Positions 48,566-59,546 of a DNA stretch of 64,000 nt are shown here, one piece after another; positions within the stretch are counted from its first letter, which is position 1; every line of letters starts with the position of its first letter. Origin of the DNA: a virus; the UHGV virus genome UHGV-0168042. One strand, written 5' to 3'. A program made the position numbers and the translations under genes. Under the pieces are notes generated by a model. It was not told the DNA's origin. It was given only the letters and a program-made list of their open reading frames with translations, and ran no database searches.

Positions 48566-48955
48566 ATGGGCTTCCCTTCTCCTGCGGCGGATTATGTTGA
48601 AAGCAGAATTTCTCTTGATCAGCAACTAATCAGGCATCCATCAGCGACATACTTCATGCGGGCGGCAGACAGCCATCACCGTGAGGGAATATTGCAGGGT
48701 GCTTTGCTGGTGGTTGATTCTTCGCTTACTCCAGTTGATGGTTCGCTGCTTGTGTGCGCTATGGAGGGTGAATATCGCATAAAGAGATACAGGAAGTATC
48801 CGCGCCAGCACCTGGAGGATTTAAGCACCGGGAAGAAAGAGGCGTTACCAGTAGATGACGATGGATGCACGGGAAGTAATGCTGTTTTTGGTGTGATCAC
48901 TCATGTCATCAATGATGCCCGAAGTGGGGAGTTTGATGATTGTCCGGTTATTTAA
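48566..48955 (+). CDS. humD: UmuD'-like S24 peptidase-domain protein (HumD-like)
   Basis: Collinear with the UmuD C-terminal domain (GFPSPAADYVE...HPSATYF...GDIVIA/SLLVCAMEGE...VFGVITHVI); lacks the N-terminal cleavable part, as P1 HumD. Confidence 0.8.
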   Translation: MGFPSPAADYVESRISLDQQLIRHPSATYFMRAADSHHREGILQGALLVVDSSLTPVDGSLLVCAMEGEYRIKRYRKYPRQHLEDLSTGKKEALPVDDDGCTGSNAVFGVITHVINDARSGEFDDCPVI

Positions 48956-49027
48956 GCTGCAAAGTGCTGGTGCTTTATGCCTGTGAGGTTTATAATTGTG
49001 TACACATAATGAGTACACGAGGTGTTT

Positions 49028-49249
49028 ATGCAATCCATTAACTTCCGTACCGCGCGCGGCAACTTTTCTGAAGTGCTCAACAATGTTGAAGCCGGGGAAG
49101 AGGTTGAAATCACCCGCAGAGGCCGTGAGCCAGCAGTAATTGTCAGCAAGGCTACTTTCGAAGCCTACAAAAAAGCGGCGCTGGATGCTGAATTTGCATC
49201 CCTGTTTGACACCCTGGACTCCACCAACAAGGAACTGGTTAACCGATAA
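49028..49249 (+). CDS. phd: Phd antitoxin
   Basis: [73 protein letters not shown] matches P1 Phd as recalled. Confidence 0.9.
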
Positions 49250-49629
49250 TGAGGCATATATCACCGGAAGAACTTATTGCGCTTCATGATGCGAATATAA
49301 ACCGCTACGGCGGCCTGCCGGGAATGTCTGATCCGGGTAGGGCAGAGGCCATTATCGGGAGAGTTCAGGCCAGAGTTGCCTACGAAGAGATCACCGACCT
49401 TTTCGAAGTCTCCGCCACCTACCTGGTGGCTACAGCGAGAGGGCATATATTCAATGATGCCAATAAGCGTACCGCGCTAAACAGTGCGCTGCTATTTCTA
49501 CGCCGTAACGGGGTGCAGGTATTTGATTCACCTGAACTGGCAGACCTTACCGTAGGGACTGCGACTGGCGAGATATCTGTATCTACTGTCGCCGCCACGT
49601 TACGTAGATTGTATGGTTCTGCGGAGTAG
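49249..49629 (+). CDS. doc: Doc toxin (Fic-fold kinase)
   Basis: 126 aa with [15 protein letters not shown] Fic-like motif; start overlaps phd stop. Confidence 0.9.
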
Positions 49630-49832: not shown

Positions 49833-49865
49833 AAGAAGCCCGCCATACCAAGCGGGCTTTTTGTT
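49833..49865. terminator. Bidirectional hairpin terminator between convergent operons
   Basis: aagcccgccataccaagcgggctt followed by T run. Confidence 0.6.
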
Positions 49866-50640
49866 ATTTCACCTCTTCTGTCGCTGTATCATTGGCCTGT
49901 TCTTCTTTGGCCCGTTCTGCAATCGCCGCACGGCATTTCGCCCTGGCTGTAGCGATTGCTTCTGCTCGTACATCGTCTGGAATCGTTGACGTTATATACA
50001 TATCCAGTTCTTCGGCACGGAATACTGTTTGGTCCAGATATTCGCGTAGCATCCAGGTAAATTCGAAATCACACGCGATAATCTCTGCGCTACCTTCTGC
50101 ACCATTTGGGAAATGAATAAATGCCTGTTTAGCCAAACCGATAACACGACATGCGGTTACCAAAACAGCGACAACCAGGTTTACATTTTCACACGCTACG
50201 GGCTGATTAACGCCGGAGATTACTCCATTTAACTGTCGGTTATATGGAAGGTAGTTTGAGATGCGTTCTACGCGCCATGTGCCAGTCAGGCTGCCATTTT
50301 TAAAGATAATTGGTGTAACGGATAGCCCAAGCTCGCGTATAAGTCGTTGCGCTATAGCAGGATCATTAAACAGGTCTAATGCTACACATTCGAAAGACTG
50401 CGCAAGGGCAAACAGTTCTTCCAGAGAGTAGTCTTTGCCCCTGGCGGTGATGTAACGACGAACGCCGCTGTCTGCATCACTCCATATAGCTACGCCATGC
50501 TCTTCATTCAGTTCTTCATTAAAGCCGAGATACGTCATGATAGTGCGTTCAATCGTGTCAAACGGCAGTGACATGTCGGCGTTAACAGCCACCAGCAGGC
50601 CATTACGCAAGCGGTATTGAATTGTTTTAGTGCTTTCCAT
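49864..50640 (-). CDS. Hypothetical protein (258 aa)
   Basis: Complete ORF. Confidence 0.5.
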   Translation of the reverse strand: MESTKTIQYRLRNGLLVAVNADMSLPFDTIERTIMTYLGFNEELNEEHGVAIWSDADSGVRRYITARGKDYSLEELFALAQSFECVALDLFNDPAIAQRLIRELGLSVTPIIFKNGSLTGTWRVERISNYLPYNRQLNGVISGVNQPVACENVNLVVAVLVTACRVIGLAKQAFIHFPNGAEGSAEIIACDFEFTWMLREYLDQTVFRAEELDMYITSTIPDDVRAEAIATARAKCRAAIAERAKEEQANDTATEEVK

Positions 50641-50646
50641 GTCAAA

Positions 50647-51324
50647 TCACTCCACAACAAACCAGTCACAGGCCAGCAGGTCGCCAACTGAAGGCACCCA
50701 CGGAACAACTACACCTTGTGCATTTTTTAAGGCGAAATAAGCACCATACGGAACGAGGTCGCCGGGGAAATATCCCTTAATGGCTTCCATTCGTGCCGGG
50801 TACTGTCCTTCAGGAACCAGCCAGCAGAATTGGTCTTCGCCGTTCCACCCGCGTCGAGCAACTTTCTTGCCATCCTTCAGCCACATCAGCGCGTCAGAAA
50901 AGTCGGCTGCTTCAAGGTCGATTTCTTCTTGCTGGGTGGTGATGCCACCAGCAGAAATAGTTACGCTCCCGGTAAGATTAATCATCTCGCCGTTGTCATC
51001 CGTAATGATGACCGTGGTTCCATTTTTGGAGGCGTCGTTAACCAGGCCATAGCGTTCCTCAAATGGTTTCTCCGGGACATAGAACAGATAACCGTTTTCA
51101 TAAACGATCAGATACCCGCCAGTTTTTGGTCGGTGTTTTTGTAAAAAAATTGCGTCAACACAAACTGTTGCCCCTTTAGGTTCAACGAGTTCGATGCTGC
51201 CCCAAAGTGGGGCATCAGTTACTCCGAAAATAACAACATTTTTGATTTTCGATGCACTAACGTTTTTGTGAGCTTTGTATTTGGGAAGGAGCTTAAAAAG
51301 CTCTTTCGTTGCCATGTTATTCAT
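50647..51324 (-). CDS. Protein with C-terminal DUF2829-like domain
   Basis: C-terminal ALMWLKDGKKVARRGWNG ... VVPWVPSVGDLLACDWFVVE resembles the DUF2829 signature from recall. Confidence 0.45.
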   Translation of the reverse strand: MNNMATKELFKLLPKYKAHKNVSASKIKNVVIFGVTDAPLWGSIELVEPKGATVCVDAIFLQKHRPKTGGYLIVYENGYLFYVPEKPFEERYGLVNDASKNGTTVIITDDNGEMINLTGSVTISAGGITTQQEEIDLEAADFSDALMWLKDGKKVARRGWNGEDQFCWLVPEGQYPARMEAIKGYFPGDLVPYGAYFALKNAQGVVVPWVPSVGDLLACDWFVVE

Positions 51325-51338
51325 AGTCTTTTCTCTGC

Positions 51339-51833
51339 TTATAACTTTTCGTACTGAAGCGGTGTACGCTTGATTTCAACGCGGTCTTCCGATGTACTAC
51401 CAAAGCCACCAGCACCTCGCTCTGTTTCATCGAGTTCATCAACTTCTACCAGCGATACCGGTTCAACACGCTCAAAAATGCCTTGCATGACAGCCATTCC
51501 AGGCTTGAGGCAAATGCCTTCCCCGCCGGGATCAGCAATCAGTTTTGCCATGATTTCACCGCGATAATCGGAGTCGATAATTCCTACGCAGTTAGCCAGG
51601 CGAGTATGTTTTTTGCAGCCCAATCCGGATCGTGGATAGAGTTTCAGACACCAGCCGGGCGGGATCTCCATAGCCAGTCCGGTATACACCCACCAGCTTG
51701 AGGAAATTGCCCCATTGCTATCGACGCATGGTTTTATTTCAACAGCCTCAAAATCCATCGCCGCCGATCCGGAGGTGGCATAAGCTGGAAGTTTTGCTGC
51801 CGGATGTAGGCGTTTCACTTTTACGTAAATCAT
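51339..51833 (-). CDS. dut: dUTPase
   Basis: dUTPase motifs GIIDSDYRGEI and RGAGGFGSTS. Confidence 0.85.
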   Translation of the reverse strand: MIYVKVKRLHPAAKLPAYATSGSAAMDFEAVEIKPCVDSNGAISSSWWVYTGLAMEIPPGWCLKLYPRSGLGCKKHTRLANCVGIIDSDYRGEIMAKLIADPGGEGICLKPGMAVMQGIFERVEPVSLVEVDELDETERGAGGFGSTSEDRVEIKRTPLQYEKL

Positions 51834-52306
51834 TGTTTTTTAGCTCTCTGCGTGAAGGTGTAAACCCGACGTTTGATATGTGGAACGGTAGGAACAGGAA
51901 GACAGGAACTTTCAATAACTCCTTGCTCCTCCAGCGATCGCACCGCCCGCAAGAACTGCGACGTGTCGCCGCCAAACTGGCGGGCATAGGTGCTGCCGTT
52001 ATGAAGTATTTGAGCTATTACCCGAGCTTTTGTCTGGCTGTCACGATATGCGAATAGCCGCACGGCCTCTTCTGGCGCAATCGCTAACTGATAGCCTTTC
52101 CCGGCACGGTGTCGAATGAATCCATGCGCCAGTAGGTTTTTGAGTTCGTTACGAGTGCGAACAGATCCGTAATCCAGGAAGTGTGGATTGATAACGACTG
52201 GCTTAAACCATTCCGTAGGTGCTTTAGCTAATAGAGCTAACAGCTTCCCGGACAATTCTGGATAGGAAGACGGGTAACAATTCAGAGATGGGTAATAAGT
52301 TTTCAC
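51830..52306 (-). CDS. Hypothetical protein (158 aa)
   Basis: Complete ORF, 4-nt overlaps with neighbours. Confidence 0.45.
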   Translation of the reverse strand: MKTYYPSLNCYPSSYPELSGKLLALLAKAPTEWFKPVVINPHFLDYGSVRTRNELKNLLAHGFIRHRAGKGYQLAIAPEEAVRLFAYRDSQTKARVIAQILHNGSTYARQFGGDTSQFLRAVRSLEEQGVIESSCLPVPTVPHIKRRVYTFTQRAKKQ

Positions 52307-52647
52307 CGACGCCCCCTTGCCGGATATCGACCTGCATTAGTATCCGGTGCAATAAAGCCGGTAGTGGGGCGAGTGAAAGCGAGATTAATCTTCTCGACCA
52401 TAGTGCGATAATTTTCCTGATAGTGGGCCAGGAGTTTTTCGGCGGCAATGATGGTTACTTTCCGGACGTAGCTTTCTGCTTCCTCCAGATTTCGCCAGTT
52501 TTTTTCGAGGGTAAACACAGGGACGGCCTCAAGCCCGGTCATGATGCCGAACACAACGACAGCATGACTGTTCTTAACACCAGCGGCGAAGGTTACGGTG
52601 TAACCATCTACCTTGAAGCGTCTTGATTCCGTGATTTGACTCTGCAA
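52303..52647 (-). CDS. Hypothetical protein (114 aa)
   Basis: Operator-like motif (52693-52715) lies about 45 nt upstream of its ATG. Confidence 0.45.
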   Translation of the reverse strand: MQSQITESRRFKVDGYTVTFAAGVKNSHAVVVFGIMTGLEAVPVFTLEKNWRNLEEAESYVRKVTIIAAEKLLAHYQENYRTMVEKINLAFTRPTTGFIAPDTNAGRYPARGRR

Positions 52648-52720
52648 AGCACCCTCCTAAATAGGCGAGGGTACTTTACAGCAAAGGCGTTAATCTAAAA
52701 AGATGTGTTAGAAATTTAAT

Positions 52721-53749
52721 TTACGAATCCATCAGGCGGCTATTAGCCCCCACAGACACGCCGCCACGGCGAAGATACCGCATAAGTGTTTCCGGTTTCT
52801 TCCATGTTCCTTCCTGCATGATCTCCACCATAGACACCTGCTTTTCAGCCATATCAATAGCGGCCCCGACGCGTGCACTATGCCCGGTCCACGTCCGGTA
52901 TCTTCCTTTGTTTGGCGTAGCATCTCTTTTATTCAGCAACACCCAGGCGTCGCTGAATATTTTCTCCATTGCAGGTGCAGTAAGGGGCGTTGTCGTGATC
53001 CTGGCCTTATTGCTACGGTGTATCGGCGGGAACAGCACTGCGTCAGGATGTTCGCGAAGCCCGGAAACATCCAGCCAGTCATTCAGCACAGCGGTAGTGC
53101 GACGGGAAAGCACCTTATCAAGCCCGGCGGCGGTCGTTATTGTCTTCGTGTGTGAAATATGTAGCGTGACAGTGTCACCTGTTTGGTCCAGATCTCCTAC
53201 ACGAATACGCGAGATTTCCGACATACGCATCAGCGTATTGTATGCAACAAAGAGAAAAGCCCGGTTGCGCAGGTCCACCAGCCGTTCTGACCTGGACAAC
53301 AGGACGTCGAGCAGTTTCAGATCGTCCCACCGCAGCGGTATAGCCTGGCCTGTTCGTTCGCCTTTTTCCGTTGCCGCTTCACGCCGGATGCGCCGCATAG
53401 CCAGAGAAACACTTTTATCATCCGAAAGTGGCGGAAGGCCACAATGCGAAAGCAGCATGTTAAGCATGGCGTAGTGCTTATCAATGGTGGTCGAAGCCAG
53501 ATCAGCATCATGCAGCTGGAGAAAATACTCGCGGGCCATCTCTGGTGAGATCGGGAACCAGGCGAGCTGGCGAGCGTGACACCATCTCGCCCAGGAGTGA
53601 AACACTAACCGGAGATCGCGCAAAGTATTCGGCGCGTAAGCCCCCCGGTCATTCATGAACCGCATAAAGTTTTCTGCGGCCTCCTGGTACTCTTTGCCAA
53701 TGTTGCGCAGAAAACCACCGGAGCTGCCAGAGATAATTAATTCACTCAT
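52721..53749 (-). CDS. cre: Cre-like tyrosine site-specific recombinase
   Basis: Collinear similarity to P1 Cre as recalled (WFPISPEMAREYFLQL, NRAFLFVAYNTLMRMSEISRIRV, WTGHSARVGAAIDMA, catalytic Y in LMRYL). Confidence 0.85.
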   Translation of the reverse strand: MSELIISGSSGGFLRNIGKEYQEAAENFMRFMNDRGAYAPNTLRDLRLVFHSWARWCHARQLAWFPISPEMAREYFLQLHDADLASTTIDKHYAMLNMLLSHCGLPPLSDDKSVSLAMRRIRREAATEKGERTGQAIPLRWDDLKLLDVLLSRSERLVDLRNRAFLFVAYNTLMRMSEISRIRVGDLDQTGDTVTLHISHTKTITTAAGLDKVLSRRTTAVLNDWLDVSGLREHPDAVLFPPIHRSNKARITTTPLTAPAMEKIFSDAWVLLNKRDATPNKGRYRTWTGHSARVGAAIDMAEKQVSMVEIMQEGTWKKPETLMRYLRRGGVSVGANSRLMDS

Positions 53750-53901
53750 GAAACTATTTCGCCTCTATATACAGATGACGCTACGCGAAAAATATAAAAA
53801 TGACAGGGTAGCTATAAGTTAATTTTCAAAATACAAGCCTTTGATTCGAGGCGCGTATTTTCATTGATGTCAACACTGATCATCTACCCATGATTATAGC
53901 C

Positions 53902-53933
53902 TAACTTTAAATAATGCCAATTATTTAAAGTTA
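53902..53933. other. lox-like recombination site: 14-bp perfect inverted repeats TAACTTTAAATAAT / ATTATTTAAAGTTA around a 4-bp core (or 12-bp arms around ATGCCAAT)
   Basis: Located about 150 bp upstream of the cre-like start; arm resembles the loxP arm ATAACTTCGTATA (10 of 13). Confidence 0.6.
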
Positions 53934-54114
53934 TAAAATGGCGATTTTTTTTAATCCATCACAGATTGATTCTGACCAGTAACACGTTGCCTTCATGGTC
54001 TTTAATTTGCGAAGTGTGGTTTATACAGTTGGTTTTCTAAAATTGATGACAAAAAATCACAGCTCTATCCTTTACTCACTCTGTTATTCGACATAAATTT
54101 GTCATAGTAATTTT

Positions 54115-54126
54115 ATGTTAGAAAAC
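54115..54126. promoter_or_regulatory. Operator-like motif ATGTTAGAAAAC about 20 bp upstream of the 54144 start
   Basis: Motif family member; a second partial copy at 54034-54044. Confidence 0.4.
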
Positions 54127-54143
54127 TAAATCGAGTAGGAATA

Positions 54144-55181
54144 ATGAGTAAGAAGTCGATCGAGAAAGAGTACAAACGGTTCCTGCAAACCGCTGAACGG
54201 TGGAAAGAGCTGGTGGTCGCAAACTCTGTTTTCCATGATACCAGTTATGCTGGCGAGGAATTCCGCCATGTTGCATTAACGCATGACCAAAACATATTAG
54301 AAGAAGCTGAAAAATGTCTTGCTGAATGGAAAGCCTTCGTTGACATGTGTCGCGATGCCGACGGCAAAGCGTCGAACATTGTTGAGTCTGTATATTCTCC
54401 GATCCCATTCATCATTGAGGACACCAATCAAAGCACGCATGTTGTTGTGCAAAGCGCTACAACAACACGTACATTTACACGTGAGCAATTGCTCAAAAAA
54501 TACGACAAAATCATAAAGAAAAGCCTGAAAAATAGGGTTTTTTCTCAAATCGTAGGTGCTCTTGAAGAAGAACAGCGCTTCTTTGAAGCTGAGCCTGAAG
54601 GCGAGATCTACCGGGCGCGTAAAGAGGCATATACAGATGTTGTGCTGACAACAAACATCGAAGGCAGCAATGCCCTTTCTCGCTTTAGAGTTGGCGCACA
54701 TGGCGCATTGGTTTTCGCAAGACTACCGAAGACAACGATCCCCGTTGTCAATAATGTTGGTGAACGCCGGAGCATTACAATTTATTCTGGCGTCGAATCG
54801 GTACCTTGCAGCCTTCTCGGCGATTTTAACTTATATCGTGTTCGTGACCTGGAAAAACACCAGCCAAGCTACGTTGCGAAGTCGTACATCTTAAGGAACA
54901 TCGATATTCGCAACGAAAACCTTAAGCAGAAATCCGCTAAGATGCTGGAGGATGCCGATCCGGCCATTCGCCATATCATTGAACGTAAGATTCGTACATC
55001 GCGTGAAGCAATGGCAAGGCTGGATAAAATGGATCTGGAATTGTTAGACGTAATGATGGCCTCTGGAGACGACCTGACCGGCATCAAACTGAATGAAGCG
55101 CGTAAAAAATACGGCAAAGCAATCGAAGAACGTTACGGATACACATTCCCCCAAACGCAGCACGCCGCAAAGCTCTGGTAA
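54144..55181 (+). CDS. Hypothetical protein (345 aa); occupies the position held by the c1 repressor in P1
   Basis: Lies between the lox-like site and pacB with an operator-like motif in its leader; no sequence-level support for repressor function. Confidence 0.45.
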   Translation: MSKKSIEKEYKRFLQTAERWKELVVANSVFHDTSYAGEEFRHVALTHDQNILEEAEKCLAEWKAFVDMCRDADGKASNIVESVYSPIPFIIEDTNQSTHVVVQSATTTRTFTREQLLKKYDKIIKKSLKNRVFSQIVGALEEEQRFFEAEPEGEIYRARKEAYTDVVLTTNIEGSNALSRFRVGAHGALVFARLPKTTIPVVNNVGERRSITIYSGVESVPCSLLGDFNLYRVRDLEKHQPSYVAKSYILRNIDIRNENLKQKSAKMLEDADPAIRHIIERKIRTSREAMARLDKMDLELLDVMMASGDDLTGIKLNEARKKYGKAIEERYGYTFPQTQHAAKLW

Positions 55182-55209
55182 TCACCACCGGCCCCGCACC
55201 GCGGGGCTT

Positions 55210-56718
55210 TTATATATCCAGATCCGGCATTTCGATATCCGCCAGAACCTGATCTCGGAAAGTTGCCATTTCGGCACCAATATCTTCATTAGCAGGCACA
55301 TAGTCCACCAGCATAGTGAAGCAGTAGGTATCCCATCGGTCAGGCGATTTGATGTTTAGCTTTTGCCGCATGTGCTCTTTGCGCATCATCGCCATTTTCC
55401 CCTCTTCATTCAGTAAAAAGGGGATTTTTGACGCTTGCTCTGCCGTTTTAGGGTCACTGTCTATCCGCATACGCCCTGACTTTATGGCATCACGCGCCAT
55501 AATATTTGCGTAGGCACGCTGATTAACAAATCGCTCCCTGTCTTTGTTCGCAAACATGGGTTTTCCCCACCGAATACGTACCGGGTTCGCACCACGACGC
55601 ACCAACTGCGCACACGTATCAGAACCAAAACCATCAGCATCAACCGCGATTGTTATATTCGGGTATTTTTCCGGCGTACATTCGTTATATATGAAGTCAG
55701 CAAAGGCCAATGGGTCCATAGTGCCAGGCATCTCCATTACCTTAAAGTTAACAACGCGCCGCTTATCCCTGTGACCTGATACCTTGCAGATGTTGAGGAC
55801 CGACTTATCTCGCCCATTACCAACGTCAGCCGTTGCCACCCATCCCCAGTTTTTCTCCAACAACACCTTGCGGCGAGCAGCGCGATCGCATTCATCACGA
55901 CCAAGCAAATAGCCGTTAATTTCTCGTGGGAACTGACCAAGCACCTTGACCATGTACTCAATAGAATCGCGCCCGCCATATTCCAGAAGCTTCTCCTTGA
56001 TGAATTGTGGTGTGACGAACGGTGATTCTTCCGAGTTAAGAACAATTGCTGTCCAGATCCCTTTCGGGTTGCCTGGGGTTTTTGCTCGAGAATGGTGCGA
56101 ATCGTAGAAATAACCACTTGGCCTTGTTGGCTGGGATAGCATCAACATCCGGTTATCTTCTTCAGTAAGAGCACCGGTCATTACGCCGATCGCCTTATCA
56201 GATATACCAGATGCTTCATCCAGAATTAGAAGCAAATGTGCCGCGTGTTCCCCCGCCAGCGCTTCTTCGTTGCCGAGTCGATAACCTTTGCAGAGAACTT
56301 CCCAAATCCCCTTACGGGAGCGCTCATAAAACATGGTGTCAGAGAGGACAAAATAGGTCTGCAACCACCCATGACGCTTAACTGCATTCGCCCAATACTG
56401 TTTAACGTATTTGAATACGCCTGTTTTTACCTGGCCTATCTTGTTAGCAACAATGATGACACGGGCATCGGGGAACAGGATCATAAAAATCAACAGCAAC
56501 ATCGCGGTAAGGGACGACTTCCCCGTTCCGTGTCCGGACGTGACGGTAGTCCTACTCCCCGTTTCCTGTACGGACTGAATGATCTGCTGCTGCTGGTGGG
56601 AGGGGAACATCCCAAAAATATCGACAACAGCCTGGGTAAAGTTGTAGCGGTATTTGATTACCATATCGCGCCAGCGTGGATCTCTGGTGACGCATTTAAC
56701 CTTGCGCCCGCCAGCCAT
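55210..56718 (-). CDS. pacB: Terminase large subunit (PacB-like)
   Basis: Walker A GHGTGKSS, Walker B LLILDEAS, C-terminal nuclease-like region; directly downstream of pacA-like gene. Confidence 0.75.
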   Translation of the reverse strand: MAGGRKVKCVTRDPRWRDMVIKYRYNFTQAVVDIFGMFPSHQQQQIIQSVQETGSRTTVTSGHGTGKSSLTAMLLLIFMILFPDARVIIVANKIGQVKTGVFKYVKQYWANAVKRHGWLQTYFVLSDTMFYERSRKGIWEVLCKGYRLGNEEALAGEHAAHLLLILDEASGISDKAIGVMTGALTEEDNRMLMLSQPTRPSGYFYDSHHSRAKTPGNPKGIWTAIVLNSEESPFVTPQFIKEKLLEYGGRDSIEYMVKVLGQFPREINGYLLGRDECDRAARRKVLLEKNWGWVATADVGNGRDKSVLNICKVSGHRDKRRVVNFKVMEMPGTMDPLAFADFIYNECTPEKYPNITIAVDADGFGSDTCAQLVRRGANPVRIRWGKPMFANKDRERFVNQRAYANIMARDAIKSGRMRIDSDPKTAEQASKIPFLLNEEGKMAMMRKEHMRQKLNIKSPDRWDTYCFTMLVDYVPANEDIGAEMATFRDQVLADIEMPDLDI

Positions 56719-58082
56719 TAATCATCCTCCGGCGGTTCTATCGCGATATCATCATCTCCGGCGTCATACCCTGCATCAGATGCATCATAATCACCGTAAA
56801 TTTCAGCCGTTGCCGAAGGGTCAATATCCAGCTCTTCGTCGTTGGCCTCGAATTCTCCAGCTTTACGCTCGCCATTGCGGTCGTAATCTCCGCAACCCAA
56901 TTCTTCAACAATGGTTGCCACATCCGCCCGGCGCTCTGCCAGCCATAGCGGATGGTTAGCCTGAAGCGTTGCAAACTCCCTTGCCTCTTTGTCCAGCTGT
57001 TCATCATCAACATCATTGACGTCAGAAACAGGTGGTTCGAGAAGAGTGATAGCTTTCGCCGCGCGCGCCGCGAGGATAGCCGGGACGCTGACACCCTGGC
57101 GCTCGATGTATTCAGCAACACCGATATCATCCAGTTCCTCGCGCTCACGCATACGTATAGCGGCGGCGATAACTCTGGCTGCGCGTGCGTCAGCGCCAAT
57201 GCGATATTCAATCTCTTTGCCACGCTGTTCGGCCTGTAGGCGTGCTAATTCGAGTTTTTCTCTGGCCTCAGCCTCTTTGAATGCTTGCTGGCGAGCGCTC
57301 TGACGAAGCTTTTCATCCCCCTGTCGCAGCTTTTGTTCGGACTGATATATAGCTGCCAACCTACTGATAAAATCATTCATGTAGTAGGCCGCGTCACTGA
57401 TTAGACCGAGAAGGCGCTGCCCAGGGTGCATTCCTTCTGGCTCTTTATCGCCCAAGGTGTCTATTTCCGCCTGTAGACGTTCGGCCTCCTGATCAACAAT
57501 GCTTTGATACTGAAGTGCGCGCTCTTGCGCCATTTGAATTGCTAACCGCAGGTGTTCTTCTGCGCCGTTCTTCATCATATCGCGAGCCACATTCGTAGTT
57601 GGCAATGTGGCACGCTGCACAGCACCGTCAGGGATCATTGCAGAAGATCCCTCAATTTTTGGGGCACTTTTATCTTCTTCGGGGATCATTTTCGCCATTT
57701 TTTCGCGCAATGATCTCCTGACGGATTCTTTTATCTCATTGTTATTATTTAAATTATTTTCATGATCCGAAGTTTTCTTTCTCGGCATACTTCGGAAAGA
57801 ACCTGCGCCCTGCGAATTGTCAATTTCTGTAAATTTTGTTTTTTCTGCACCCTCTTCCTGCTTTTTTGTTGCTCTTCCTGCCCGTTTTTTTTCAGGTGAT
57901 TTGGTGCTTTTTTTTGTTGTCTTTACCTGCGACCGCACCTCATTTTTTTTCATATTGAGATGCTTTCTGGCTGTATTGAAGCTAAGGCCATGCTCCTCAC
58001 AGTATTCCTTTACAGTGATCCCTTTTTCTTCACGCAACGCTATAAAGCGGGCGCGGTGCTCCTCCCAATTAACCAGACTCAT
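56718..58082 (-). CDS. pacA: Terminase small subunit (PacA-like) with N-terminal HTH
   Basis: N-terminal HTH (GITVKEYCEEHGLSFNTARKHL), acidic C-terminus; contains a GATC-rich cluster at 57630-57770. Confidence 0.55.
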   Translation of the reverse strand: MSLVNWEEHRARFIALREEKGITVKEYCEEHGLSFNTARKHLNMKKNEVRSQVKTTKKSTKSPEKKRAGRATKKQEEGAEKTKFTEIDNSQGAGSFRSMPRKKTSDHENNLNNNNEIKESVRRSLREKMAKMIPEEDKSAPKIEGSSAMIPDGAVQRATLPTTNVARDMMKNGAEEHLRLAIQMAQERALQYQSIVDQEAERLQAEIDTLGDKEPEGMHPGQRLLGLISDAAYYMNDFISRLAAIYQSEQKLRQGDEKLRQSARQQAFKEAEAREKLELARLQAEQRGKEIEYRIGADARAARVIAAAIRMREREELDDIGVAEYIERQGVSVPAILAARAAKAITLLEPPVSDVNDVDDEQLDKEAREFATLQANHPLWLAERRADVATIVEELGCGDYDRNGERKAGEFEANDEELDIDPSATAEIYGDYDASDAGYDAGDDDIAIEPPEDD

Positions 58083-58471
58083 AAAGCAACACCACGCTTT
58101 TTAACGGCGGCATTCCACAGCTTATTCGCCATGTCCACCAGCTCTCGTTGCTCTTTTCGCGCCTGTTCGACTGATTTCCTGCTACAGTTTTTAACCAGTA
58201 AACTGCCGTATTCAGGGGTTCGCCCACGCACCTTGAACTGATATCCGTTCAGGCCATGCAACCAGTATTTTCGTGGGTAAACACGATCATCAAGCTCACA
58301 GATTGCCCTGCTTGAACGAACAAAATGACGAATGATGTTAGTTACACTTACTCGTGAAACATGGAGATGAGGGTATTTTTCTTTGGCGAGAGTGGTAATT
58401 TCAGTGACTGTCAGATAGCAGTCAGCCCTGATCATGATATCCGCAATTTCTGCGCTGCTGATTTGTTCCAT
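58079..58471 (-). CDS. Hypothetical protein (130 aa); position matches the late promoter activator gene of P1
   Basis: Positional only (immediately upstream of pacA, operator palindrome in leader). Confidence 0.35.
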   Translation of the reverse strand: MEQISSAEIADIMIRADCYLTVTEITTLAKEKYPHLHVSRVSVTNIIRHFVRSSRAICELDDRVYPRKYWLHGLNGYQFKVRGRTPEYGSLLVKNCSRKSVEQARKEQRELVDMANKLWNAAVKKRGVAL

Positions 58472-58547
58472 TAATCCCCCGGCAGGAAATGACCGAGGGG
58501 ATGATAATGAGAATGTTAAAACTGTATAGACTGGTAAAAAGATGATT

Positions 58548-58582
58548 ATATTAGAAAATTAATATTAAATACCTAACACTAC
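58548..58582. promoter_or_regulatory. Operator-like palindrome TATTAGAAAATTAATATTAAATACCTAACACT
   Basis: Motif family member upstream of the 58471 start. Confidence 0.4.
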
Positions 58583-58971
58583 CAGCGAGACAAACGAACA
58601 ACATGTTTCACTTTTGCGATCCACTGTCCGCGATAACTATTGATTACGGCCTGTGCCAGCTTCAAATTGGCTTCAAAATCAGCCTTACTACCATCAGACT
58701 CCACCAGCATTCCTCCATCTATTTCTGGTAAACATAGATAATCCTGCTCAACCTGCAGCGGCATTGATGGCTCTCTGAATGGCGTTACTTGCTCTGCTTT
58801 CCAGCGAAATCTAACCCTCATCCCCCTGGTGGTCATTACTAGATAGCCTGTTATAGTGCTTTTATGGCCCACATCAGTACGCGTGGCATTGCATGACACG
58901 ATCTTACAGTTAGCGATAGACCACTCCATATTGGTGGCCTGTTGAGTGCTTAATTTGGTAGTCCCGTACAT
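58579..58971 (-). CDS. Hypothetical protein (130 aa)
   Basis: Complete ORF. Confidence 0.4.
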   Translation of the reverse strand: MYGTTKLSTQQATNMEWSIANCKIVSCNATRTDVGHKSTITGYLVMTTRGMRVRFRWKAEQVTPFREPSMPLQVEQDYLCLPEIDGGMLVESDGSKADFEANLKLAQAVINSYRGQWIAKVKHVVRLSRW

Positions 58972-59546
58972 CAGAAAGCCTCCCAGTCAGTCGCGATAAT
59001 ATCCACACCAGTTGCAAACCAGTCTGTCTGCGCCTGTAAATCACCATTCATCATTACCAGGCGAGGCATCACCATCACATCGCACCCTTCCACAATATCG
59101 AATGCCTCTTCCGGCAAGAATTCGAAGAGCTTTTCTTTGCTGCCAATGCTGCCACGGAACATCGATATATAGCTCCCTTTAGGCCATGATGTCCGCCGGG
59201 CATCAAGCCCTTTCATCATCCAGTAAAAAGCCGAGGAAAAAGGGATATTCTTTTTGCCAATGATTACATTATTCGCTTCTGTGTACTTCAGGAACTTAAC
59301 TAACCTTACCATTGACTCGGATAACGCAACGTATGGCTCATGATTGATTGCTGACACGCTTACACCGTGCAAATCCACGCTTACCACTGTCATATCACCG
59401 CTCTGTGCGGTTTCGATATTGACGCCTTTGCGAACTAATGAGGCGTAAAGTTCCTCTCGCTTTTTGGTCCAGCGTTCCCGCTTCCCTATGAAGTCACTCA
59501 AAATGAGATCTTCTTCTGCATATGCGTTATCGTTCGCCATTAACAT
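58971..59546 (-). CDS. Hypothetical protein (191 aa), possibly DUF2829-related
   Basis: Weak resemblance to the DUF2829 pattern (YWMMKGLDARRTSWPKGSY ... ATDWEAF). Confidence 0.35.
   Translation of the reverse strand: MLMANDNAYAEEDLILSDFIGKRERWTKKREELYASLVRKGVNIETAQSGDMTVVSVDLHGVSVSAINHEPYVALSESMVRLVKFLKYTEANNVIIGKKNIPFSSAFYWMMKGLDARRTSWPKGSYISMFRGSIGSKEKLFEFLPEEAFDIVEGCDVMVMPRLVMMNGDLQAQTDWFATGVDIIATDWEAF

Follow-up and report, generated by a model that had tools for sequence, protein, structure and literature searches.

We analysed a 64,000-nucleotide (nt) stretch of DNA from the virus genome UHGV-0168042 (the window), in which two genes on the minus strand encode proteins with Tad2-like domains. 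Between 49.8 and 59.7 kb the window shares 98-98.6% identity with Escherichia phage D6, a plasmid prophage that is related to P1 and is the source of the Dre/rox recombinase. The first gene, open reading frame A (ORF-A; 50647..51324, minus strand), encodes a protein of 225 aa that consists of an OB-fold domain, a linker and a Tad2-like domain, as assigned by Pfam, structure modelling and NCBI identity. The second, ORF-B (58971..59546, minus strand), encodes a protein of 191 aa in which an alpha/beta N-terminal domain is followed by a divergent Tad2-like domain (Pfam and NCBI identity). A first-pass annotation, made from the sequence alone, had placed both under a single span, 50647-59546. This span holds as the outer bracket of ORF-A and ORF-B, but the genes between them (dut, two small ORFs, dre, c1, pacB, pacA, lpa and orf5) have other functions.

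The C-terminal domain of ORF-A (residues 137-225; 50650..50916, minus strand) belongs to the Tad2 family. Residues 141-224 matched the Pfam model PF11195 (Thoeris anti-defense 2-like domain, DUF2829) over profile positions 2-73 of 73, with E=2.3e-22 and 79.8 bits against a curated cut-off of 25 bits, which bears out the DUF2829 signature that the first-pass annotation had pointed out at this C-terminus. That annotation had also noted an N-terminal extension of roughly 130 aa and an architecture other than the minimal Tad2 one; the extension measures about 136-140 aa, and the remark on architecture was correct and proved the more interesting point. The Tad2 call itself is not new for either protein, since the exact ORF-A protein is present in NCBI as 'DUF2829 domain-containing protein' and the exact ORF-B protein as 'Thoeris anti-defense Tad2 family protein'. 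Clustering at 90% identity groups each of them with several hundred sequences, many on ~90 kb contigs. When compared with Tad2 proteins of known structure, ORF-A residues 137-225 aligned to ModTad2 (9eib, 8v3e) with E ~1e-20 and 40/89 identical positions (45%), to HgmTad2/AcrIIA7 with E 1e-11, and to SptTad2 and SPO1 Tad2 with ~4e-9. Matches of ORF-A to these structures were also obtained with E=7e-20 (ModTad2, 9eib), 5e-10 (HgmTad2) and 3e-8 (SPO1 Tad2). ORF-A was then modelled as a monomer with AlphaFold2, using 27 homologues. The predicted local distance difference test (pLDDT) score was ~77-91 for most of the Tad2 domain and 48-59 in the insertion between β2 and β3. The model has the Tad2 fold, an N-terminal helix and then an antiparallel sheet with loop helices, and in a Foldseek search of the PDB all Tad2 structures outranked every other entry.

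The pocket of characterised Tad2 proteins can be traced in ORF-A. In SPO1 Tad2, W25, N26, W73 and D79 hold the ligand and S76 and T78 take part as well, and in HgmTad2 the ligand is held by W21, N22, G23, W87, S90, T92 and D93; the HgmTad2 mutants W21A/N22A and S90A/T92A/D93A have lost ligand binding. ORF-A carries a GWNG motif (G159 W160 N161 G162; 50839..50850, minus strand) and, within its last residues 208-225 (PWVPSVGDLLACDWFVVE), a PWVPSVGD motif (W209, S212, D215; 50680..50703, minus strand). W160, N161, G162, W209, S212 and D215 are in register with the ligand contacts of SPO1 Tad2 and HgmTad2, and the spacing of W209/S212/D215 is that of W73/S76/D79 in the former and W87/S90/D93 in the latter. 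The threonine position of the second motif is occupied by G214 in ORF-A and by S77 in ModTad2. At 32-36% identity, SPO1 Tad2 (gp34.65) and HgmTad2/AcrIIA7 thus have their fold in common with ORF-A, along with the W/N and W/S/D residues of the pocket. Both of these proteins are homotetramers with their pockets at protomer interfaces.

The closest characterised relative of ORF-A is ModTad2 (MoTad2), from a Myroides odoratus prophage. GWNG and W-x-P-S-V-x-D are common to the two proteins, and their β2-β3 insertions are of nearly equal length. ModTad2 is a stand-alone protein of 88 aa, whereas ORF-A has 136 further residues at its N-terminus. ModTad2 and its close homologues bind histidine-linked ADP-ribose (His-ADPR) and thereby inhibit type II Thoeris. 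In addition, ModTad2 binds cyclic UMP and cyclic CMP (cUMP/cCMP) at a second interface, and it blocks Pycsar. These ligands were established by experiment, whereas that of ORF-A is predicted from homology. The best-supported reading of the ORF-A Tad2 domain is that it would be a working sponge of the ModTad2 type; by homology, ORF-A and ORF-B are both candidate sponges.

The C-terminal domain of ORF-B (residues 100-191; 58974..59249, minus strand) was assigned as a divergent Tad2-like domain from Pfam, hhalign and its motifs. Residues 103-190 matched PF11195 with E=1.1e-9 and 39.1 bits. The first-pass description of 58971-59546 as a weaker version of DUF2829 was therefore accurate, and the match is still significant, lying over the cut-off. 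Alignment of this domain with the ORF-A family by hhalign gave E=4e-6 and a probability of 87%. ORF-B also has an N-terminal extension, of ~100 aa, whose residues 1-90 (59277..59546, minus strand) form a helix-helix-strand-strand-strand-helix domain with no family assigned. Because Acb4-Tad2 fusions are known, and because Pasteurella phage protein Pmp13_0045 (185 aa; Acb4 at 5-80, Tad2 at 99-184) has nearly the layout and length of ORF-B, Acb4 (PF13876) was considered as the identity of this domain. It was supported neither by Pfam nor by hhalign; at the sequence level the domain had no match of any kind, and it is neither Acb4 nor Sequestin. The gene is preceded by a strong ribosome-binding site (AAGGAG), its frame is intact and its conservation amounts to 90-99% identity; a relative that is 56% identical retains the same architecture. 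The stop codon of ORF-B overlaps the start codon of orf5 (TGATG, 58969-58973), suggesting that the two are probably translationally coupled. The orf5 product (58579..58971, minus strand; 130 aa) belongs to PHROG 7004, has no function assigned, and may act together with ORF-B.

Proteins with DUF2829 domains also carry two other labels, toxin of a type I toxin-antitoxin (TA) system and anti-CRISPR protein, and we consider it highly improbable that either describes ORF-A or ORF-B. The first label is used by NCBI for some members of the ORF-B cluster ('MW1434 family type I TA system toxin'), but NCBIfam release 20 has no match for ORF-A or ORF-B. E. coli is not known to carry a type II-A CRISPR-Cas9 system. 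The anti-CRISPR AcrIIA7 (8kbi, 9kzr) does match ORF-A in both sequence and structure. However, AcrIIA7 is the same protein as HgmTad2, and Li et al. could not reproduce its inhibition of Cas9 and showed that it is a sponge for glycocyclic ADP-ribose (gcADPR) and cyclic dinucleotides.

The N-terminal half of ORF-A is of a different kind. Residues 10-95 (51040..51297, minus strand) are predicted by AlphaFold2 to form a small β-barrel with short helices, at pLDDT ~87-94. No Pfam model matches this region, and in PHROGs it falls in families of unknown function. When a profile of 18 such N-terminal domains was compared with the sequences in the PDB, the sole match was the capsid decoration protein Dec of phage L (6e3c), with E=8.1e-8 across the OB-fold of that protein. 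ORF-A residues 10-95 and the N-terminal domain of Dec are thus homologous, and have in common the OB-fold and the core motifs P-x-Y-K, A-x-x-I-K, K-P-E-V-G-G-Y-L and A-F-E-x-x-Y. The domain is followed by a linker (residues 96-136; 50917..51039, minus strand) with a pLDDT of 38-60. A single-sequence search with phmmer aligned ORF-A residues 60-126 to residues 57-122 of the Dec chain (E=0.004), and residues 114-126 of the linker (MINLTGSVTISAG) resemble TITLTGAVTGSAS in the C-terminal part of Dec, which is reported to form a trimeric spike. This resemblance covers a stretch of 13 residues of low pLDDT. Since the alignment continues into the C-terminal part of Dec, the first ~130 residues of ORF-A look like a near-complete homologue of that protein, with a short stalk-like stretch after the OB-fold. 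Dec ends in its trimeric β-helix spike, whereas ORF-A runs on into the Tad2 domain. A tail-fibre repeat (PF03406) was also considered for the linker, and Pfam gave no match.

To place this OB domain in a family, we ran an exhaustive phmmer search with ORF-A residues 1-100, which returned at least 1,649 representative clusters (50% identity) at E<=1e-3. Most members are stand-alone proteins of about 85-160 aa. Among the top 149 representatives (the cluster of ORF-A itself excluded), 43 are of 110 aa or less, 62 are of 111-160 aa and 44 are longer, and four contain two OB copies. The family occurs in phages of Ralstonia, Klebsiella, Caulobacter, Burkholderia and Pseudomonas, and in several jumbo phages. 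Across 145 representatives, ~25 positions are at least 90% conserved, including H19, K20, K26, H64, Y71, Y75, D77, Y79, S81, S83 and E89 (ORF-A numbering). That polar and aromatic residues are conserved across such diverse viruses is more in keeping with a common small ligand or a catalytic site than with attachment to unrelated capsids. Most of the near-invariant polar residues are missing from Dec, suggesting that Dec is plausibly the diverged member.

The longer members of the OB family were searched for partner domains by running Pfam on the 93 longest of the top 150 matches. Where a partner is recognisable, it is mostly a signal-sponge family: Acb4 (PF13876), Tad2 and Sequestin (PF21825) were each found in four proteins, the Acb2/Tad1 hairpin in three and the RyR domain, recently reported as a Thoeris sponge, in one. 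The other partners were DUF4406, DUF551, AlpA and P68HR, in one protein each, the last marginal (E=7e-4). Acb4 precedes the OB domain in one protein (P0246) and follows it in another (P0248), and in a third it follows two OB copies (P0167). Sequestin stands after the OB domain in P0243 and P0244, as does Tad2 in P0184 and P0196, and three families are combined in P0259 (OB, Tad2, Sequestin) and P0307 (OB, Sequestin, Acb4). The OB module thus recurs on its own, in proteins of about 90 aa, and also fused to members of at least five known sponge families, either before or after them. A signal of the same kind, fusion to known sponges, led Tal et al. to Sequestin, which they then verified experimentally.

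Fusions of Tad2 have been described before, namely Acb4-Tad2 and Tad2-Sequestin (bioRxiv 10.1101/2025.07.12.664507). In these fused sponges (Acb4-Tad2 of Pasteurella phage Pm86, Tad2-Sequestin and Acb4-Sequestin; Tal et al. 2025 and Fedorova et al. 2026 preprints), a flexible linker joins the sponge to a small phage domain, as it does here. The partner in ORF-A differs in being neither Acb4 nor Sequestin but an OB-fold that has no Pfam model or reported function. Multi-sponge proteins contain at least two domains from verified sponge families, and in the present case only the Tad2 domain comes from such a family. Tad1, Tad2, Acb2, Acb4, Sequestin and Lockin are the sponge families known so far according to a 2026 paper, to which that paper adds TadIV-1; none of these is an OB-fold. 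A search of full-text literature for sponge, OB-fold, Thoeris and CBASS in combination found nothing, and within the searchable literature the OB family is not described as an anti-defence module.

Collectively, these results suggest that ORF-A is a modular anti-signalling protein, made up of a Tad2 sponge and a separable OB module, and that ORF-B is a second, divergent Tad2-like paralogue. We put the probability of this reading at roughly 60%. How ORF-A would act we infer from its relatives. Most likely, its Tad2 domain would assemble into the usual homo-oligomer, and the oligomer would sequester an immune signalling nucleotide that the infected host produces, so that the effector of the defence system would stay inactive. 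Since ModTad2 is the closest characterised relative, our first candidate for the ligand is His-ADPR, as derived from TIR activity in type II Thoeris, possibly together with cUMP/cCMP or an isomer of cyclic ADP-ribose (cADPR). The OB module would most likely serve as a second signal-binding or signal-processing unit and so widen the set of signals neutralised by one polypeptide. More tentatively, and with the odds somewhat against it, the OB domain may represent a large, unnamed phage family that binds or processes bacterial immune signalling nucleotides. It would then be a further sponge-type family beside Tad1, Tad2, Acb2, Acb4, Sequestin, Lockin, TadIV-1 and the RyR-like domains, with Dec as a diverged member recruited for capsid binding.

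Several observations weigh against this reading, some at the level of the OB family and others in ORF-A, ORF-B and their relatives in P1-like elements. Most of the longer OB-family members have no recognisable partner, the Pfam matches numbering at most 20 in the 93 proteins. The exact ligand of ORF-A is an extrapolation from 45% identity to ModTad2. The one relative of the OB domain that has been characterised, Dec, binds capsids, not nucleotides. Homologues in Pantoea and Pseudomonas phages carry the annotation Dec or capsid decoration protein. In Ralstonia phage YL4 (L008:4007-4491), a stand-alone OB gene (86 aa) adjoins a gene for a CsrA-like regulator and is located between the portal gene and the major head gene, an unusual placement that bears on whether the family serves the capsid or signal binding.

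The observations on Dec, on the annotated homologues and on YL4 favour an alternative in which ORF-A residues 10-130 would act as a decoration protein like Dec, bound to the capsid by legs formed from the OB-fold and extended by a short trimeric stalk, and would carry the Tad2 domain at the tip. It could take two forms, one in which the sponge is held near TIR sensors that are activated by the major capsid protein and one in which DUF2829 has a role on the virion surface unrelated to immunity. A bolder variant of our own reading likewise has the OB module tethering sponges to capsids, which some TIR sensors recognise. The alternative gains from the Dec match itself, which spans the entire OB domain in the family profile, reaches the C-terminal region of Dec in the single-sequence alignment (INLTGSVTISAG against ITLTGAVTGSAS) and is the sole specific PDB match for the N-terminal half of ORF-A. 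It also gains from staphylococcal and streptococcal Thoeris sensors that are triggered by the major capsid protein (PMC12578639). However, the residues K30, Y31, Y49, Y71 and E73, which mutagenesis identified as the coat-protein contacts of Dec, correspond to V31, I32, C55, N77 and Y79 in ORF-A by manual mapping of the profile alignment and are not conserved; this is a weak test, as a different capsid could use different contacts. The divergence of Dec from the near-invariant pattern of its family and the spread of that family over phages with unrelated capsids, jumbo phages among them, also speak against a capsid anchor. The Dec-like stalk motif (LTG) is absent from all of the top 149 representatives. 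The recognised partners are cytoplasmic sponge domains, with no structural virion domain in the Pfam scan of the 93 proteins, and the database labels of 'decoration protein' were probably transferred from Dec. On balance we regard a capsid anchor as quite unlikely, and we rate signal binding by the OB module well above it.

ORF-B is the less certain of the two candidates. In place of GWNG it has SWPKG, in which W121 is kept and the equivalent of N161 is P122; the asparagine of the W-N pair in Tad2 contacts the diphosphate. The second motif keeps W176 and D182, and has T179 for the serine and V181 for the threonine. These changes lower the claim that ORF-B would bind a canonical ligand; they do not lower the claim of domain homology. 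Comparison of ORF-B with the PDB sequences gave no match below E=0.5. The ORF-B model has a mean pLDDT of 56, with 31-53 over residues 90-191, which is too low for a comparison of the C-terminal fold. The relatives of ORF-B form about 10 clusters, all from D6-like elements, and the most distant is 56% identical and of equal length. The loss of the asparagine together with the low-confidence model makes a sponge function much less secure for ORF-B than for ORF-A. We regard ORF-B as a diverged Tad2 paralogue of uncertain ligand; with its pocket altered, the ligand, if there is one, is probably different.

The OB copy of ORF-A raises a similar question. At four positions that are near-invariant in the family it has a different residue (D77N, S81F, S83V and G91R), and it has been lost from the reference D6. 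There, the corresponding gene (L004:4127-4567) encodes a protein of 146 aa, which is ORF-A minus 237 nt in frame (codons 21-99; window 51028-51264). The deletion junction lies in a CAAAAA repeat that is found at both ends, so the 146 aa protein of D6 is a derived form from which the OB domain was deleted. The 146 aa form was found on 527 contigs, compared with at most 102 for any single 225 aa variant listed. The deletion and its frequency suggest that the OB module may be dispensable or decaying in the D6 lineage, and the deletion taken with the four substitutions suggests that the OB copy of ORF-A may be weakened even if the family as a whole is functional.

Beyond D6, the locus varies widely among P1-like elements. 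ORF-A homologues are abundant on P1-like contigs from E. coli, Salmonella, Shigella and Klebsiella. The β2-β3 insertion occurs in at least three unrelated versions in proteins that are near-identical elsewhere (alignment A1, columns ~200-245), and one version coincides with a change of GWNG to EWKG or GWKG. In HgmTad2 this insertion, a long one described as β2-β5, forms the pocket that binds cyclic dinucleotides, suggesting that the P1-like alleles probably differ in a second ligand. The insertion versions look like cassette exchange at the part of the Tad2 domain that in HgmTad2 binds a second ligand. At the level of the whole gene, SJ46 (L001) has the OB-Tad2 gene, whereas in P1 (L006, ssb-isaA-IS1-isaB) ssb is followed directly by isaA, with IS1 just downstream, and in RCS47 (L005) the copy is split by IS26 with cargo genes inserted. 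The ssb-isaA site is thus unstable in P1-like phages. At the syntenic position, other ~90 kb plasmid prophages (L010:5001-5870 and L011:5001-5576) have a Tad2-Sequestin fusion, whose gene lies downstream of one for a Cre/Dre-like integrase of 342 aa and is followed by a ~220 aa protein and by a HigB/helix-turn-helix pair instead of Phd/Doc. Two further E. coli homologues of ORF-A are a dUTPase-Tad2 protein (P0056; 241 aa) and a tail-fibre-repeat-Tad2 protein (P0005; 306 aa) in which the repeat replaces the OB domain; both probably arose by deletions that joined neighbouring genes. From these comparisons, the ORF-A locus behaves like a small anti-defence hotspot with swappable modules.

Such turnover could also mean that the Tad2 domain of ORF-A is an ordinary sponge, and that domain shuffling at a recombination hotspot has left behind the OB extension, and perhaps all of ORF-B, without a function. 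The four changed OB positions in the D6-like group, the microhomology deletion in D6 and the abundance of the resulting short form point this way, as do the absence of the gene from P1, the IS26 insertion in RCS47, the accidental fusions P0056 and P0005, and the replacement of asparagine by proline in the W-N pair of ORF-B. Against this, the 225 aa ORF is intact on many contigs at 97-100% identity and ORF-A keeps most of the near-invariant OB residues. ORF-B, for its part, has the intact frame, conservation, ribosome-binding site and similarly built relative described above. We therefore consider decay unlikely, and retain a modular ORF-A with a divergent paralogue in ORF-B as the favoured reading.

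The genes around ORF-A and ORF-B are those of a P1-like element. From the ORF-B end, the order is ORF-B, orf5, lpa, pacA and pacB on the minus strand, c1 on the plus strand, the rox site, and then dre, the two small ORFs, dut, ORF-A and a homologue of P1 IsaA on the minus strand. The dUTPase gene (51339..51833, minus strand) belongs to the same closely spaced run as ORF-A and ends 14 nt upstream of it. In Bacillus phage JL a dUTPase gene likewise adjoins a Tad2-like gene. The IsaA homologue (49864..50640, minus strand; 258 aa) begins 6 nt downstream of ORF-A; it has no function assigned and is a conserved neighbour of the ORF-A locus across P1-like phages. The genes orf2, orf3, dut, ORF-A and isaA form a tight run that extends from a promoter-like site near dre to a terminator-like site. 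The former is a near-consensus sigma-70 site (TTGGCA, 16-nt spacer, TATAAT; 11/12 matches) at 53893-53920 on the minus strand, just upstream of dre and beside rox. The latter is a GC-rich hairpin after the IsaA homologue (49833-49862), which is terminator-like on both strands. It is possible that these sites bracket a dre-to-isaA transcription unit that includes ORF-A. A search for the P1 C1 operator consensus ATTGCTCTAATAAATTT with up to 3 mismatches gave no match, which is uninformative on early expression because D6 may use a different operator. Past the IsaA homologue, on the plus strand, lie a Phd/Doc-type toxin-antitoxin pair (49022-49629) and a homologue of HumD (UmuD'; 48566-48955), as in P1 and D6. 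At the other end of the region, beyond ORF-B, are genes for tRNA-Met, tRNA-Thr and tRNA-Arg on the minus strand and an ORF of 275 aa with a lipoprotein-like signal sequence (59999-60074, 60229-61056 and 61912-62066). At about the same distance, the D6 record has tciA/tciB-like genes and tRNA-Ser, tRNA-Thr and tRNA-Asn, and the window may differ from the reference D6 there.

Signal sponges are a main route by which phages get past Thoeris, CBASS and Pycsar, and the fusion partners of known sponges have recently led to the discovery of new families. The Tad2 calls on ORF-A and ORF-B add nothing to their current annotation. What is new is the architecture, in which a Tad2 sponge is combined with a Dec-like OB module from a family that recurrent fusions connect with five sponge families. 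The natural alleles with and without the OB module, together with the sister prophages that have Tad2-Sequestin at the same site, form a ready comparison set. If the OB family does bind a signal, the anti-defence repertoire of phages would grow, and anti-defence loci could be recognised simply by the OB module. Dec, a classic decoration protein of the capsid, would then be linked to proteins that act against bacterial immunity.

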